From a virus (taxonomy: Duplodnaviria; Caudoviricetes): 40,436 bases of DNA. Positions 15,349 to 27,813 of the stretch are shown here, piece after piece. Below the pieces are notes generated by a model, which had not been told where the DNA came from, did no database searches, and saw nothing but the letters and a program-made list of their open reading frames with translations. The stretch covers positions 1 to 40,436 of the IMG/VR virus record IMGVR_UViG_3300020216_000031; one strand, 5' to 3'. A program made the translations under genes and the position numbers. Every line of letters starts with the position of its first letter. Within the stretch, counting starts at the first letter, position 1.

Positions 15349-15633
15349 ATGAGAGAAAGCAAAATCGAAGAATATCTTAAAAATGAAGTTGGGAAATATT
15401 CAGGGTTATGTCTGAAATTTACATCATCTGTTTCAGGTGTTCCTGACAGAATTGTGATACTTCCTGAAAATAGAATTTATTTTGTTGAGTTGAAACAGGA
15501 AAAAGGTCGACTCTCAAAAATACAAAAATACATGCACAGACAATTTAAGAAAAGGGGCGTACCTGTTTACGTTCCATATTCAAAAAGTGACGTCGATAAA
15601 TTTATAGAGGAGGTGTGCAAACATGTCGATTGA
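15349..15633 (+). CDS. VRR-NUC nuclease (Holliday junction resolvase-like)
   Basis: MRESKIE...GVPDRIV...FVELK...LSKIQ. Confidence 0.9.
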   Translation: MRESKIEEYLKNEVGKYSGLCLKFTSSVSGVPDRIVILPENRIYFVELKQEKGRLSKIQKYMHRQFKKRGVPVYVPYSKSDVDKFIEEVCKHVD

Positions 15634-16985
15634 TTTTAAACCCTATGACTATCAGGCTTATGCGATAAATAAGATTATAGATAACAAAAGGTTTGGGCTC
15701 TTTTTAGACATGGGACTTCGGCAAAACAGTCTCAACGCTAACAGCAATAGAGCAACTCAAATATGATTATCTTGATGTAGACAAAGTGCTGGTCATAGCT
15801 CCTAAGCGTGTAGCAGAGGACACATGGGCTCAGGAAGTCGAGAAGTGGACGCATTTAACTCATTTAGATGTTTCGCTTGTGCTTGGCACACCTAAGCAGC
15901 GAGAGCAGGCGCTAGAGAGAAATGCAGACATATATGTCACGAACAAAGAAAACACGAAATGGGTATGTGAAAGATTTAAAAAAGATTGGCCGTTCGATAT
16001 GGTCGTAATTGACGAGTTATCTACTTTCAAGAACTCAGACAGCCAACGCTTTAAGATACTTAAAAAGAAATGGCCATTGTTTGACAGGTTCGTAGGACTT
16101 ACAGGAACGCCAGCACCTAAAAATATCATGGACTTATGGGCTCAGCTATATTTGATTGACGGGGGCGAGCGTTTAGGAAAGTTCAAAACACATTTTAGGC
16201 AAAAATACTTTTATCCAACTCATAAGGTTGCTGAGGACACATTCAACTGGGAACTGAAAGACGGTGCGAAAGATGAAATCTACAAAATGATTAGCGACGT
16301 AACCGTCAGCATGGAAAGTAAAGACTATTTGAAAATGCCTGAACGTGTCGACACAGTCAAAGAGGCCAAGTTAAGTAAAAAAGAGCGAGCCTTGTATGAC
16401 GAGTTAGAGCAGAACATGGTCATAGAGAACGACATAGACGACGAAAAAGACATAGTGGCATTAAATTCAGCCAGCTTGAGTGATAAGTTGTTACAAATGT
16501 CTAACGGAGCCGTATATGCTGACGATGGCTCTATTACTCACATACATGATAAGAAACTAGAGTTGCTAGACGAGATAATCGAAGAGTCGCAAGGCCAGCC
16601 AATACTTGTTATGTATAACTACAAACATGATAAGGAGCGATTATTGGAACGCTACAGCTTTGCTGAGACCTTAGACAGTGACGACTATATGGAGCGCTGG
16701 AACAATGGCGAAATACAAATGCTTATCACACACCCAGCAAGTGCAGGGCATGGGCTCAATTTACAGTATGGAGGTTCAATCATGGTTTGGTTTGGCCTAA
16801 CTTGGAACCTTGAATATTATGAGCAGGCCAACGCTCGACTTTACAGACAGGGGCAAAAGAAAACGACTGTTATTCATCATCTACTTACTGAGAACAGCAT
16901 TGACCAAAAAGTCTATGAGTCACTCAAAAATAAGAAACTGGATCAGACTGAACTCATGAACGCAGTAAAAGCACGTTTATTTTAA
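15623..16985 (+). CDS. SNF2-family helicase, joined by a +1 frame change at CTT-CGG-C (15716-15722)
   Basis: ATG 15623 with GGAGG RBS; frame 0 gives ...FLDMGL, +1 frame gives GKTVSTL...; DELS, GLTGTP, GHGLNLQ, QANARLYRQGQ; 453 aa if joined. Confidence 0.85.
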
Positions 16986-22964: not shown

Positions 22965-23591
22965 ATGACTGACAAATTAAGATTAAACTTACAGCACTTT
23001 GCTGAACAATCAGGCGAAGCAGCAGACAATAATAATGAGCAGGCTGGAAACGATGATAACCAGCAAGGTGCTGGCACACAGCAACAAGACGAGGGCGATA
23101 ATAAAGGCGATGAAAAGACTTTTACTCAAGATGAAGTAAATCAAATCATCGAGAAGCGTATCGCTAGAGAACAAAAGAAAGCTGATGAGAAAGCCAAAGA
23201 GGCTGAGAAGTTAGCAAAAATGAACAAAGACCAAAAGGCTGAGTATGAGCGTGAGAAGATGCAAAAAGAGCTCGACGCCTATAAGGCTAAAGAGGCACGC
23301 TATGAAATGAAGCAGACAGCTAAAGACATGCTCAAAGAAAAGGACATCACAGCAGATGATGACCTACTCGAAATTGTGACAGCTGACACAGCTGACCAAA
23401 CAAGCGAGAACGTCAAAGCTTTTACAGATGTGCTTAACAAAATGGTTAAAGAGCAGGTACAAGCTAAGCTGACACAAGGCACGCCTAAGAGCTTTCAAGC
23501 TACAGGCTCAATGACTCGTGAGGACATCATGGGCATTAAGGACGACTCAGCACGACAAAGAGCAATTGCTCAAAATAGACACTTATTCTAA
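22965..23591 (+). CDS. Capsid scaffold protein (DUF4355) with N-terminal Prp cleavage motif
   Basis: LRLNLQHFAE; KTFTQDEVNQIIEKRIARE; coiled coil. Confidence 0.9.
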   Translation: MTDKLRLNLQHFAEQSGEAADNNNEQAGNDDNQQGAGTQQQDEGDNKGDEKTFTQDEVNQIIEKRIAREQKKADEKAKEAEKLAKMNKDQKAEYEREKMQKELDAYKAKEARYEMKQTAKDMLKEKDITADDDLLEIVTADTADQTSENVKAFTDVLNKMVKEQVQAKLTQGTPKSFQATGSMTREDIMGIKDDSARQRAIAQNRHLF

Positions 23592-23611: not shown

Positions 23612-24535
23612 ATGGCAGTAGAAAATAACTTAATTGATGTAGAAGCATTAGGGGAAGCAAAGTCGATTGACTTCGCTAACAAGATGGGCGAACGCTTAAA
23701 TAAATTATTTGAAGCATTAGGCATCACAAATAAAATTCCTATGAACGTAGGCTCAGCATTAAAACAATATCGTTTTAACGTTATCGAGTCAGAGGCTCCT
23801 AACGGCAACGTTGAAGAGGGCGAAATCATTCCATTAACTAAAGTTGAGCGTGAGCTAGTGAACATCACAGAGCTTGAGTTCCGTAAGTTCCGTAAATCAA
23901 CATCAGCTGAGGCTATCCAATCACACGGCTATGACTTAGCAATCAACCGTACAGACGCAGAGCTTATTCGCTATGTACAGAAGAAATTCAGAACAGACTT
24001 CTTTGAAACTATCGAGGCAGCTGTGAACAACGCAGACCGTACAAACACAGAAGCGTTATCAGGTAAGAACTTGCAAGGTGCGTTATCTCGTGGCCGTGCT
24101 AACTTATCTGTATTACTTGATGATGAAGTGACACCTATCGCGTTAGTAAACCCTAATGACGTAGCAGGACACTTAGCAGATGGTTTCATCAACTCAAACG
24201 GTTCTCAATTCGGATTGAATTTATTAACACCATATGTAGGTGTGCAAGTAATCGAGTTCGCAGACGTACCACAAGGCACTGTATACATGACTACAGCTGA
24301 AAACTTAAACGTTGCATATGCAAACCCACAAGGCGAAATGAGCAGAGCGTTCAACTTTGCCTCAGACCAAACAGGCTTTGTAGGTGTCATTCATGACATT
24401 CAACCACAACGTTTAACAGCTGATACTGTATATGCGTCAGCAATTTCAATGTTCCCTGAAAACGTGGACGCAGTTATCGCTGTAGACATTGAGGGCGAAC
24501 AAGCTGACGGTGGCTCTACTCCCAGCGAGGCCTAA
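23612..24535 (+). CDS. Major capsid protein
   Basis: Follows the scaffold; VEEGEIIPLTKV...FRKFRKSTSAEAI. Confidence 0.9.
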   Translation: MAVENNLIDVEALGEAKSIDFANKMGERLNKLFEALGITNKIPMNVGSALKQYRFNVIESEAPNGNVEEGEIIPLTKVERELVNITELEFRKFRKSTSAEAIQSHGYDLAINRTDAELIRYVQKKFRTDFFETIEAAVNNADRTNTEALSGKNLQGALSRGRANLSVLLDDEVTPIALVNPNDVAGHLADGFINSNGSQFGLNLLTPYVGVQVIEFADVPQGTVYMTTAENLNVAYANPQGEMSRAFNFASDQTGFVGVIHDIQPQRLTADTVYASAISMFPENVDAVIAVDIEGEQADGGSTPSEA

Positions 24536-24587
24536 GGGCGTAAGCGTTAGACCTAACGTAAAATCGGCAAGAATTTCAGTTAAATAA
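24518..24587 (+). other. Putative +1 frameshift extension of the major capsid protein
   Basis: ACT CCC AGC GAG GCC TAA; the +1 frame from 24522 gives PARPKGVSVRPNVKSARISVK*. Confidence 0.7.
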
Positions 24588-24604
24588 TTTTAGGAGGCTA
24601 TACA

Positions 24605-24874
24605 ATGGCAGACATATTAAAAGTATATCAAGGCGAGAACGTTGTAGGACAAGCTGAGCGTGCAGAAGATGGCACAGCGTCAGTTACGATTGACGGATTA
24701 GAGGCTGGAACTGAGTACGCAGCAGGTACATATCAGGTAACTTTCAGTAATGAGGCAGGCGAATCAGCTAAGGTTGACGTGCCAGCTTTCACTACTAAGG
24801 AAAGCGCACCAGCAGAACCTCAAAACGTTACTACAGAAACGACAGAGGACTCAGCAGACGTGAGCGCAGAATAA
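24605..24874 (+). CDS. Split/permuted fibronectin type III-like virion decoration protein
   Basis: VTIDGLEAGTEY...YQVTFSNEAGES (FN3 strands E-G); C-terminal PAEPQNVTTETTEDSADVSAE resembles FN3 strands A-B. Confidence 0.75.
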   Translation: MADILKVYQGENVVGQAERAEDGTASVTIDGLEAGTEYAAGTYQVTFSNEAGESAKVDVPAFTTKESAPAEPQNVTTETTEDSADVSAE

Positions 24875-24888
24875 GGAGGCGTTAAGCA

Positions 24889-25218
24889 ATGGCGTACATT
24901 GACGGCGTAAAGCTCCTTATAGGTTTGAATGATAATAAGCAAGATGACCAGCTTGAAAAAATAATCGACGTTACGGAAAAACGCTTAATAGCAATGTTAC
25001 CGAAAGACGTAGAGGCAGTGCCTAGTTCCCTTGATTGGGTCGTCGAAGAGGTAGCAGTTAAGCGTTACAACCGTATAGGCGCAGAGGGTATGAGCTCCGA
25101 GAGCATTGACGGTCGCTCAACAAAGTTTCAAGAGAACGACTTCGACGAGTACCTATCAATCATCGAGGACGAGTTCCCGTCTACTTCAAGTAAAAAAGGA
25201 AGTATCAAGTTTTATTGA
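24889..25218 (+). CDS. Head-tail connector (SPP1 gp15-like)
   Basis: EVAVKRYNRIGAEGMSSES.DG. Confidence 0.88.
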   Translation: MAYIDGVKLLIGLNDNKQDDQLEKIIDVTEKRLIAMLPKDVEAVPSSLDWVVEEVAVKRYNRIGAEGMSSESIDGRSTKFQENDFDEYLSIIEDEFPSTSSKKGSIKFY

Positions 25219-25520
25219 GATATGAACATAGAGCTACCCTTGTTAAAGAGGGTCAAAAGCAATACAACCCTGACATTGGGAAGTATGAAAATGCTGGTCA
25301 GCAAGTTTTCGACTCAGTTCCTTGCAACAAGTCGCCTCTCTCGCCTCAGCGTACAGCTGTAGAGTTCGGGGAGGTTACTCGTGATATAAGTATCATAAGA
25401 CTGAACAATCGTTTTGACGAGCCCGTGACGCACGCCTATATAGATGGCGTTAAATATCTCATCGTTAGGCCTGTAAGATATAGACGAGACACAGTTTTCT
25501 ATATTGAAGAGGTCAACTAA
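25215..25520 (+). CDS. Head closure protein
   Basis: MRYEHR...YNPDIGKY; position in the neck module. Confidence 0.75.
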   Translation: MRYEHRATLVKEGQKQYNPDIGKYENAGQQVFDSVPCNKSPLSPQRTAVEFGEVTRDISIIRLNNRFDEPVTHAYIDGVKYLIVRPVRYRRDTVFYIEEVN

Positions 25521-25867
25521 TGAGAATTACAGGCGTAAACAAACTCATTAAGAGAATACAGAGAAACCAACAGACCATTGACGACGACGTCGACTATATC
25601 CTCAAGCAGAACGCTAAAGAGTTTGCAGCAGATACAGTCACAGAGGCACGTCGTGTGATGGTCAAAGGTTACTGGACGGGCAACCTTGCTCGAATGGTCG
25701 AAGATACGAAACAAGGACAGATGAGTTACATTATCACATCAAACGCACACTATTCAGGCTTTCTTGAATACGGTACTAGGTACATGGAGCCTGAGACATT
25801 TATGAAACAGATTTATCAGAAATATAGTGCTCAGGTAAACGCAGACATTGAGAGATTGCTCAAATAA
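25520..25867 (+). CDS. HK97 gp10-like neck/tail protein
   Basis: TGNLAR, YSGFLEYGTRYM. Confidence 0.85.
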   Translation: MRITGVNKLIKRIQRNQQTIDDDVDYILKQNAKEFAADTVTEARRVMVKGYWTGNLARMVEDTKQGQMSYIITSNAHYSGFLEYGTRYMEPETFMKQIYQKYSAQVNADIERLLK

Positions 25868-25883
25868 GGAGGGACAAAAGCTA

Positions 25884-26276
25884 ATGGCTAAACAATCAGC
25901 AAAATTCGAGTTATTCAATTATCTATTTAAGACTTTCAGAGCGCTGGGGGTTCCTGTTGTACGAACGAAAGAACTTCATCAAGAGCTACCTTATCCGTTT
26001 ATCGTACTTGAGGTCGTCGAGGACAGTATCGGCGTAATGAGTATTGATAATTATTCGGGTACGCCAACAGTGAGAGCTCACTTGTGGTGCACGGAGGACG
26101 ACCTTGCCAGCGCTGACAGGGTATACATACAGATACAAGAGACTCTACTAAATGTTGAAAAGCTCCCGTCTTACAGAGTAACTCTCGAGAACTTAGACAC
26201 AGTAGACGCAACAGACACAACAACAAATCAAACATTGCAGCATACAGTTATAGACGCAACTTACAGAGCGTCATAG
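25884..26276 (+). CDS. Tail terminator / completion protein
   Basis: ELPYPFIV; precedes the tail tube gene; start ATG 25884. Confidence 0.75.
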   Translation: MAKQSAKFELFNYLFKTFRALGVPVVRTKELHQELPYPFIVLEVVEDSIGVMSIDNYSGTPTVRAHLWCTEDDLASADRVYIQIQETLLNVEKLPSYRVTLENLDTVDATDTTTNQTLQHTVIDATYRAS

Positions 26277-26304
26277 GGCAGGCCTAGTCTAAGGCTTGCC
26301 TTTT
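26277..26304 (+). terminator. Terminator-like hairpin
   Basis: GGCAGGCCT-agtcta-AGGCTTGCC then TTTT. Confidence 0.55.
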
Positions 26305-26336
26305 ATTATGCTGATAAAACAGGAGGGCATTTATAT

Positions 26337-26915
26337 ATGGCAATTAAACAAGGTTCTGACGAGTTAGCGTTAGTCCGTAAGTTAGGCGACGCTACAGAGG
26401 CAGACAAAATCATGTGGATTACAGAATTAGAACGTGAAACAGAGCGAGACACAGACATCGAGGCTACAGTTGACGGTTCAGTTAGCTCAGGAGGTACACG
26501 TGAGTCAACAGTAACTATCACGTCTTATATGGACGTAGATGACGAGTTAAGTGACGAAATCGAGGACGCAGCAGAGGACGCTGTGCCATATGAATTATGG
26601 ATTATCAATAAAAAAGTACAAGGCTCAGGCGAGAATGAGGGCAAATATAAGGCTGAGTATCGTCAAGGACATTTCAACTCAATCACTCGTACTAACGAGG
26701 CTGACTCTATTGCAGAGTTCGAGACTGAGTTCGGCGTTTATGCTAAGAAACAAAGAGGCTTTGCGTCTCTACCTGAAATCGTAGAGCAAAACAAAGCAGC
26801 TTACGGTTTCCACGACACTACAGCAGATGACCCAGCAGACGACGGACTTGCTGACTTACCTGACGAGGATATCCCACAACCTGACGAGGGTGCGACAGGC
26901 GAAGAAACTCCCTAA
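26337..26915 (+). CDS. Major tail (tube) protein, TP901-1 family
   Basis: GSDELALVRKLG, EATVDG, YELWIIN, YGFHDT; ends CCC TAA. Confidence 0.9.
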   Translation: MAIKQGSDELALVRKLGDATEADKIMWITELERETERDTDIEATVDGSVSSGGTRESTVTITSYMDVDDELSDEIEDAAEDAVPYELWIINKKVQGSGENEGKYKAEYRQGHFNSITRTNEADSIAEFETEFGVYAKKQRGFASLPEIVEQNKAAYGFHDTTADDPADDGLADLPDEDIPQPDEGATGEETP

Positions 26916-26976
26916 GGCTCCCGAAATCGCTGAGGTAACAACTGGCACGAACGAGGTCAGCATTTCAGCAGAGTAG
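26907..26976 (+). other. Programmed +1 frameshift extension of the major tail protein
   Basis: ACT CCC TAA G (SPP1 gp17.1-type CCC-UAA); the +1 frame gives PKAPEIAEVTTGTNEVSISAE*. Confidence 0.85.
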
Positions 26977-26991
26977 GGCAAACAACATAAT

Positions 26992-27016
26992 GAGGGCGCT
27001 AAGCCCTCTCTTTTTT
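26992..27016 (+). terminator. Intrinsic terminator placed after the frameshift extension
   Basis: GAGGGC-gctaa-GCCCTC then TCTTTTTT. Confidence 0.7.
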
Positions 27017-27055
27017 ATTACTAAATTAAAACATACAAGCGAGGCTATTTTTATT

Positions 27056-27415
27056 ATGGAAATTCAATTCAAAGGCAAAACAATCGACTTATCATTCGGC
27101 TTTAAAGCGTTATCTATCATCGACAAACGCTTAGGCATGGAAATCGAGCAAATGAGTATCGGACAAGGCTTACAGCTTTTAGTTCCTAACTTAGCGCAAG
27201 GCAACCCTATCACTATTGGCGAGGTTATTCTTGCAACAACAGCACATCACAAGAAAGCTCCTCAAGAGTCAGACCTTGACGACATTCTTGACGACATTGC
27301 AGAGAATGAGGGCTTTGAGGCGTTCGGCGAGCAAATCATCAAGGAATTGGGAAAGAGACCTACAACCCAAAACCTAGTACCCGACGAGTACAAACCGAAG
27401 AAACAGAGCAAGTAA
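27056..27415 (+). CDS. Tail assembly chaperone (gpG equivalent)
   Basis: LSFGFKAL..ID; start ATG 27056 with GAGG RBS. Confidence 0.85.
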   Translation: MEIQFKGKTIDLSFGFKALSIIDKRLGMEIEQMSIGQGLQLLVPNLAQGNPITIGEVILATTAHHKKAPQESDLDDILDDIAENEGFEAFGEQIIKELGKRPTTQNLVPDEYKPKKQSK

Positions 27416-27813
27416 GTGAAGAGTCTGACCCTCTCACATATGACCGAGTAGTCGTTTTGTGTATGAGCGAGTTAGGCATTTACGACATTGACTACATCGA
27501 CACTATGACTTTACGTGAGTTCAATTATCGCATGTACGCCCTTGAGTATGAGTTGCTCAAAAAAGAGTATGATACTTACAAACTGGCGTTTGCAATCAGA
27601 GACGTTGAGGCTAAGCGTGAGGTCGGCGTTGGTAAGAACAAAAAAGAGGAATATATCCTAAGTTCAGTCAATGATTTGATTGATTATCAGAAAAACGTTA
27701 AGCGATTGAATAAAGGCTTGCCTATTGAACTTGAGAACCCTGACAGCAAGTCGGATAAAAACAAACCATCGCTAGACGTTTTAAAACAAATCAAAAACCA
27801 TAATAAAAAATAG
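27349..27813 (+). CDS. Tail assembly chaperone frameshift portion (gpGT equivalent)
   Basis: Slippery G GGA AAG at 27349-27355; -1 frame open to 27813; MTLREF motif. Confidence 0.85.
   Translation, partial: GKETYNPKPSTRRVQTEETEQVSEESDPLTYDRVVVLCMSELGIYDIDYIDTMTLREFNYRMYALEYELLKKEYDTYKLAFAIRDVEAKREVGVGKNKKEEYILSSVNDLIDYQKNVKRLNKGLPIELENPDSKSDKNKPSLDVLKQIKNHNKK

Follow-up and report, generated by a model that had tools for sequence, protein, structure and literature searches.

The 40,436-nucleotide window analysed here is the entire record of a tailed phage (IMGVR_UViG_3300020216_000031), whose portal, scaffold, capsid, connector, tube and tail chaperone are SPP1-like, and it encodes three homologous 21-residue peptides together with a single apparent partner for them. 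Two of these peptides, which we call plugs, extend the major capsid and tail tube proteins in the +1 reading frame, and the third forms the C-terminus of an 89-residue protein encoded between those two genes, the rest of which resembles a domain of the fibronectin type III (FN3) kind deprived of its first two strands and is here termed the socket. We consider it very probable that a minority of the capsid and tube subunits carries the extension, and that these subunits dock a shared socket protein by completing its fold in trans. On balance we also favor, with distinctly less assurance, the view that the frameshift-encoded plugs give rise to short head-to-tail FN3 chains on both head and tail.

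Translation reproduces the three peptides exactly where the initial annotation had placed them. On the plus strand, plug 1 is the basic 21-codon extension (24522-24587, corresponding to FN3 strands A-B) of the 307-residue major capsid protein (23612-24535; phrog_544 major head protein, E 1.8e-60); plug 2, of net charge -3, is the 21-codon extension (26911-26976) of the 192-residue tail tube protein (26337-26915; PF06199, E 5e-14, and phrog_238); and plug 3, of net charge -6, is the in-frame C-terminus (24809-24874) of the socket protein (open reading frame 24605-24874). In the latter, residues 1-64 (24605-24796; strands C-G but not A-B, with a net charge of -8; phrog_341 positions 1-78, E 4e-22) are separated from the plug by a short linker (24797-24808), which comprises 4 residues after strand G rather than the approximately 5 originally estimated. 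In a six-frame search of the window the plug profile recovers the three plugs, which belong to its own seeds, with E-values of 2e-10, 2.5e-9 and 4.4e-8, the next best match being not better than 0.22, and the socket profile matches solely the 89-residue reading frame. Among the stop-anchored 21-mers on the plus strand of the fetched loci, 196 of 10,595 score at least 30 (including 9 seeds, and with many loci being near-identical S. aureus prophages) and none falls between 15 and 30, and the top score among the 19,776 minus-strand 21-mers is 10.3. Thus, the plug scores split cleanly into two classes, beyond what is expected by chance.

The FN3 sandwich consists of seven strands, arranged as A-B-E and C'-C-F-G, and strand B closes with a conserved Trp. 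The plug ends at the position of this Trp and lacks it, as do all 17 aligned plugs. Pfam fn3 (PF00041) scores 14.6 bits on residues 17-54 of the 89-residue protein, below the gathering cut-off of 25, and we conclude that this protein works like an FN3 domain but is not, as a single chain, a curated member of fn3. In the AlphaFold2 model of the monomer, built on a 47-row alignment, the socket block reaches a predicted local distance difference test (pLDDT) of 87-91, and the protein's own tail (residues 69-89) is strandless, with a pLDDT of 49-57. The top structural match of the socket model is BppA of phage Tuc2009 (residues 230-285; Z 7.1, root mean square deviation (rmsd) 2.0, 56 aligned residues, 34% identity), followed by gp30 of phage Bxb1 (4-72; Z 6.7, rmsd 2.3, 62 aligned), and the further matches are confined to strands C-G of FN3 domains, e.g. 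residues 588-644 in the FN3 domain of chitinase A1 (Z 5.5, rmsd 2.1, 56 aligned). These Z values are middling, and the argument rests on which residues align. Natural proteins in which a plug passes directly into a socket (P0176, P0190 and P0205, with repeats in P0152, P0159 and P0161) offer a comparison: the plug+socket stretch of P0176, folded from alignment A5 (22 rows, without separate plug rows), is modelled with a pLDDT of 84 and matches entire FN3 domains, with Z of 8.4-7.0 among the 50 matches listed, including chitinase A1 residues 558-644 (Z 8.3, rmsd 2.4, 85 aligned). Since the presence of the plug moves the start of the chitinase A1 alignment from residue 588 to 558, the plug corresponds in these models to strands A-B and the socket to strands C-G, which bears out the split FN3 domain initially suggested. 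Sequence searches of the PDB with the 89-residue protein and its profile gave weak FN3 matches only and no solved homologue of the socket proteins, and the plug profile found nothing better than E 0.75, recovering neither BppU nor Bxb1 gp29; that best, weak match lies inside the Kayvirus tail sheath (5li2_A, residues 276-293).

The question whether the domain is completed in trans or in cis is addressed by a model of the complex between the socket (residues 1-66) and the full-length protein, which scores 0.82, compared to 0.00 for the best of three controls, on a scale where 116 of 157 solved pairs and 2 of 215 mismatched pairs reach the mark. The runs agree in 100% of contacts, the partner has a pLDDT of at least 89, and residues 65-89 of one chain insert into the other, with 82-88 pairing with 25-32, and 75 with 45 and 59. 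The 89-residue protein could instead be regarded as a circularly permuted FN3 domain, with its tail folded back in a monomer and with the virion plugs binding by strand exchange or not at all; all seven strands are indeed present in one chain, and if the PxxP motif served as additional linker, the connection would grow to about 8 residues. We regard this as very improbable, because the tail is unfolded in the monomer model and confidently placed in trans, and because a 4-residue linker is too short to return along a domain whose termini lie at opposite poles. This linker is kept across homologues of 33-98% identity: among 32 proteins in which the plug directly follows the socket, it has 4 residues in 29, 3 in two and 6 in one. 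In P0176 and P0190, which are natural socket-plug-socket-plug fusions, a single residue precedes the last plug, and P0152, P0159 and P0161 begin with a bare socket followed by intact repeats. Completion in trans, as initially proposed, is therefore the reading we adopt for the joint.

The two extensions would be installed by a +1 slip of the ribosome. The predicted site in the capsid gene, CCC-AGC (24521-24526), includes the only CCC codon of that gene and precedes the stop by three sense codons, and the predicted site in the tube gene is the shifty stop CCC-UAA (26910-26915). CCC-A is conserved in all seven related capsid genes that bear a plug. All 44 distinct +1 sites collected across loci (41 distinct plug sequences), which share descent and are not 44 independent draws, open with CCC and have A or T as the next base: 21 read CCC-TAA, 13 CCC-AGC, four CCC-AGT and three CCC-TAG, with one each of CCC-AAG, CCC-ACA and CCC-TCA. 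In ten late genes of the window, CCC accounts for only 7 of 65 NCC codons. Staphylococci decode CCC with a single transfer RNA of anticodon UGG, which would pair better after the slip. If the +1 extensions were instead remnants of a former in-frame fusion that are never translated, this would agree with the lack of a detectable RNA stimulator; we consider that possibility barely credible in view of the invariant CCC, of frames that stay open for 21-22 codons across genera, and of the virion masses in Triaviruses described below. Together, the conserved codon, the open frame and these masses from relatives support the frameshifting inferred originally at both sites. In Listeria phages, +1 shifts occur at CCC ahead of either a stop or a sense codon (PMC5009743; statements on papers cited here by PMC number refer to their accessible portions). 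A terminator-like hairpin with a T run (26992-27018) follows the stop of plug 2 rather than the tube's own stop.

The route by which plugs are attached varies among phages and may be +1, -1 or in-frame. Two Latilactobacillus phages carry the capsid plug in the -1 frame, with an A-run ahead of the stop (L133, 6903; L138, 6861), and the tube gene of the former has a +1 CCC-UAA site, so that both directions of shift occur within one phage. At least one plug is fused in frame in phages EV3, Sazerac and WIS42; in EV3 a near-identical plug-like peptide forms the in-frame end of both the capsid and the tube protein (L134, 5918 and 8763), which means that every capsid and tube subunit would carry one.

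Evidence from virions comes from relatives, i.e. from published matrix-assisted laser desorption/ionization (MALDI) spectra of S. aureus Triaviruses and a Kayvirus (PMC5923470). Six Triaviruses share peaks at 15,871, 23,295, 25,208 and 30,373, and the published table assigns 15,871 to the protein in which a socket is joined to an immunoglobulin-like (Ig) domain and 23,295 to the tube; the supplementary spectrum of phage 3A labels 23,328, 25,254, 30,383 and 32,335, and the peaks at 25,208, 25,254 and 32,335 are unassigned in the tables of that paper (PMC5923470). For phi12 we computed 23,294.7 for the tube, 15,871.2 for the socket protein, 30,374.8 for the capsid protein from residue 129 (a fitted start) and 25,204.7 for the tube with the extension that a CCC slip would add, compared to the peak at 25,208. 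For 3A the computed values are 23,335 for the tube, 25,245 for the extended tube, 30,393 for the capsid and 32,328 for the extended capsid. By mass alone, the extended forms match the peaks within 3-10 Da, which is about the error seen for the assigned peaks, and the difference between the shared peaks (25,208 minus 23,295, i.e. 1,913) agrees with a slip at CCC. We propose that the three unassigned peaks represent plug-extended tail and capsid proteins. Other sources of the 25,254 and 32,335 peaks were sought among 12 annotated 3A proteins (first 8.4 kb, with and without Met) and among two-peak sums, and none fitted.

In Kayvirus 812, three adjacent genes encode gp155, which ends in a plug, gp156, with the order socket-Ig-plug, and gp157, a socket only (L009, 3474-3986 and 4001-4228), suited to act as anchor, extender and cap, respectively. 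All three proteins are found on virions, at 23,069, 17,718 and 7,818 (PMC5923470, Table 3). PDB entries 9ROX and 9ROZ show residues 2-175 of gp155 alongside the major capsid protein, so that the plug end, which is absent from the model, projects from the head. For gp156 and gp157, a profile search revealed no PDB entry.

Plug and socket travel together. Among 34 loci found via the capsid protein, the capsid plug and the socket are both present in seven and both missing from 27, five of the latter with just 0.9-2.1 kb of downstream sequence; counted by distinct capsid sequences (27 in total), six have both and 21 neither. The co-occurrence expected at the outset is thus all-or-none among these loci. 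Locus L094 encodes a 96%-identical capsid protein and carries no capsid plug, no tube plug and, in the slot of the socket gene, an unrelated 94-residue gene (after 7933); the plug-socket module appears to have been exchanged there as one unit. In a sample of 401 genomes, 12 match, and a plug lies within 1.5 kb of nine of the ten short sockets, with three long multi-domain matches lacking a plug. The remaining short socket (L153) has no plug within 1.5 kb, and BE24 (L010) shows no anchor plug in the 5.7 kb examined. It is conceivable that the plugs act alone or with a different partner, such as the capsid or tube surface or a host protein, and that the socket protein arrives on the virion in a different way; the plug-like stretch in the Kayvirus tail sheath might be cited in favor of this. 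We find this very improbable, considering the all-or-none co-occurrence, the single socket in the genome, the natural fusions of plug and socket, and the solved BppU/BppA pair discussed below.

Of 50,697 phage records, 560 contain homologues of the 89-residue protein, among them records of therapeutic Kayviruses, of S. aureus Triaviruses and of Enterococcus phages, and the same plug-socket design is found in named phages with unrelated capsid types. Phages phi12 and 3A have plugs on the capsid and the tube and a socket fused to a Big_2 domain without a plug of its own; SpP has the order socket-Ig-plug; and Efquatroviruses have a bare 66-residue socket. Because many relatives, such as phi12, 3A and the Efquatroviruses, have sockets without their own plug, docking is the basic job of the system and chaining is an option or variant rather than its defining feature. 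In five long proteins (P0152, P0159, P0161, P0177 and P0205), the N-terminus is a bare socket of degenerate sequence, and either intact repeats or a large central domain come next; these proteins are likely to be cargo hung on plugs.

For the window, we envisage that a slip at the rare CCC proline codon would add the 21-residue plug to a minority of capsid and tube subunits, that each plug would complete the five-strand socket of an 89-residue protein, and that the C-terminal plug of the latter would recruit the next copy, so that both head and tail would bear short chains of FN3 domains joined end to end in a head-to-tail manner. Because a docked subunit exposes a new plug and the genome encodes no plug-less cap, growth would continue until the monomer is exhausted, and the amount of socket protein per anchor would set the length. 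The socket protein is likely made in capsid-like amounts, above those of the anchors, since it has its own strong ribosome-binding site (Shine-Dalgarno-like TAGGAGG, 24591-24597) and a search of the capsid-socket gene interval found no terminator-like site; as a rough estimate, the chains would be of few units. The mean net charge is +0.5 for frameshift anchors and -5.3 for in-frame plugs, with self-plugs ranging from -5 to -10. Nucleation on the virion could thereby be favored over free polymer, the anchors being neutral or basic on average and the socket and self-plug acidic, although the window's tube plug is an exception to the anchor pattern. Ahead of the slip site, the tube protein has a long terminal stretch that is acidic and rich in Pro (26840-26909); this stretch differs in length among relatives and is likely a flexible tether for plug 2.

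The same charges invite a different explanation, in which docking remains single-layer: the acidic self-plug would be a placeholder that closes a cytoplasmic dimer or ring and keeps the socket soluble until it is displaced by the virion plugs, which bind better, leaving one socket per anchor whose tail is free. This alternative is unlikely on balance but carries real weight, as the self-plugs are far more acidic than the average frameshift anchor and face a socket of charge -8, a swapped dimer agrees equally with the complex model, and the plug-less sockets of phi12, 3A and Efquatroviruses act one per anchor. On the other hand, solitary plug-less sockets of 66-75 residues exist, so that a placeholder is unnecessary for solubility, and a displaced self-plug could still capture another socket. 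The order of anchor, extender and cap in the Kayvirus genes and the covalent tandem fusions would suit a chain.

Several observations weigh against our interpretation. No chain or fibre has been observed, and the complex model shows that the tail fits a neighbour, but with a plug-less acceptor it fits open chains and closed dimers or rings alike. The high score of that model may reflect likeness to intact FN3 domains and to the solved BppU/BppA pair, and since both the self-plug (-6) and the socket (-8) are acidic, self-binding may be weak. RNA folding revealed no stimulatory structure at either slip site (z 1.27 and -0.50). The co-occurrence involves few independent lineages, and among 213 homologous proteins 18 are socket-only and 99 have other C-termini and no scored plug. 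The mass evidence for extended subunits comes from S. aureus Triaviruses, by mass alone, with peak labels taken from a PDF; the 30,383 peak served to fit where the mature capsid protein begins; and the 25,254 and 32,335 peaks are unlabelled in the mercaptoethanol-treated panel. Finally, the differences in 3A (1,926 and 1,952) are slightly nearer to those expected if the slip occurs at the codon following CCC (1,926 and 1,951) than to those for CCC itself (1,910 and 1,935), whereas the shared peak agrees with CCC, so that mass does not pin down the codon at which the ribosome slips.

The function is likely to be accessory, a matter of spacing or of weak contact with surfaces rather than of assembly, because the FN3 domain of SPP1 is dispensable (PMC8718954), BppA improves adsorption inhibition (PMC4742702) and gp30 of Bxb1 is non-essential (PMC12646305). 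It is tempting to generalize further and to consider a snap-on split-FN3 joint common to phages of Gram-positive bacteria, capable of building chaperone-free pilus-like fibres, in which frameshifting would dose the capsid and the tail with plugs, Kayviruses would contribute extenders and caps, and the window would provide the minimal, uncapped monomer that grows from head and tail, starting on virion anchors favored by their charge; we hold this broad picture to be about evenly balanced between right and wrong. The proposed system would explain how abundant small proteins are retained on virions and would assign leftover virion masses. It predicts flexible chains that symmetric cryo-electron microscopy maps would average out, as with the plug end of gp155 missing in 9ROX and 9ROZ. 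It also makes the role of phage Ig-like decorations testable, since a single change at a slip site would strip the head or the tail separately, and it puts on offer a natural pair of a 21-residue tag and a 7 kDa catcher, and possibly a self-assembling FN3 chain.

The closest named homologues of the 89-residue protein come from Staphylococcus nepalensis, S. saprophyticus, S. pseudoxylosus, S. gallinarum and S. equorum, and the host is therefore likely to be a coagulase-negative staphylococcus. Elsewhere in the window, GGGAAAG (27349-27355) lies close to where the tail chaperone gene (27056-27415) ends, the -1 frame stays open into the reading frame 27457-27813, and we take the motif to be an ordinary -1 frameshift of the lambda G/GT type. 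The helicase-like region (15349-16985) consists of two reading frames (15349-15633 and 15786-16985), with the +1 frame open past the first stop, and is possibly a frameshifted or split gene.

A parallel to the chains proposed here is found in the chaperone-usher and type V pili, where subunits with an incomplete beta-sandwich are completed by a terminal strand of their neighbour and serve as anchor, extender or cap. The window differs from these in employing the FN3 rather than the pilin Ig fold, a two-strand C-terminal donor and a virion as the site of construction, with no chaperone, usher or protease gene seen. The joint itself has a solved precedent in phage Tuc2009, where a 25-residue C-terminal hairpin of BppU completes the sheet of BppA domain 2, a 57-residue FN3-like domain of another virion protein, to give a composite similar to a titin domain (PMC4742702, PDB 5E7T). 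There, a baseplate protein carries the plug without any frameshift, a C-terminal socket bears a sugar-binding domain, a single layer and no chain is formed, and the arrangement was described as a one-off; in the window, the plugs are frameshift-encoded on capsid and tube, and the socket is N-terminal and carries a further plug. The initial annotation was aware of no description of a split, polymerising form; the split joint has in fact been described already, and for the polymerising form we likewise found no description. A second solved split-FN3 joint is likely to be that of Bxb1 gp29 and gp30 (PDB 9D93), where the tail spike gp29 has a plug-like peptide at its end and the gene that follows begins with a bare socket (L159, 5185-8521), complementation being deduced by us; this pair differs in being encoded in frame, in its place at the tail tip and in that gp30, the wing base, carries an enzyme. 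The Bxb1 wing arm, gp31, was considered as a known self-chaining unit and rejected, as its sequence is not of the socket-plug type.

Programmed frameshifting at the 3' ends of genes for major structural proteins, yielding a minority of extended subunits, is known for SPP1 gp17.1* and for the Listeria phages PSA, A118 and A500 (PMC8718954, PMC5009743); it affects both capsid and tail in PSA, and SPP1 adds FN3 at a ratio of 3:1. In SPP1 a whole FN3 domain is joined covalently, whereas the 21-residue extension in the window supplies two strands and not a complete Ig or FN3 domain, the rest being a separate gene common to head and tail. PSA was rejected as a prior case of the same device, its extensions being unrelated to the plugs and no socket gene lying downstream. 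In current annotation the socket is the N-terminal half of what PHROG 341 calls 'major tail protein' and NCBI 'fibronectin type III domain-containing protein' (in Triaviruses the second 'major tail protein', in Kayviruses a TmpI-like protein). The former label is wrong for the socket gene, as the tube is a separate PF06199 gene, and in Kayviruses, Triaviruses and Enterococcus phages alike the socket is wrongly labelled a second major tail protein, with no annotation of the plugs; the split nature is missing from those annotations of the PHROG 341 family that we examined. The accessible portions of the papers on the necks of Brochothrix NF5 and phage 812 (PMC12917162, PMC12886913), on Fibralongavirus (PMC6950010), and of PMC7563437 and PMC13252515 are silent on a plug-socket system. 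In the full-text literature, where coverage is thin for subscription papers, including that on the Bxb1 structure and any on 9ROX/9ROZ, which possibly describe part of the system, there is no description of frameshift-installed plugs, of a socket shared by head and tail, or of self-chaining phage FN3 domains. Hence, the joint itself and the addition of whole domains by frameshifting were known, the window adds the minimal self-plugged socket, and the present analysis adds the matching virion masses, the all-or-none control and the model of completion in trans.

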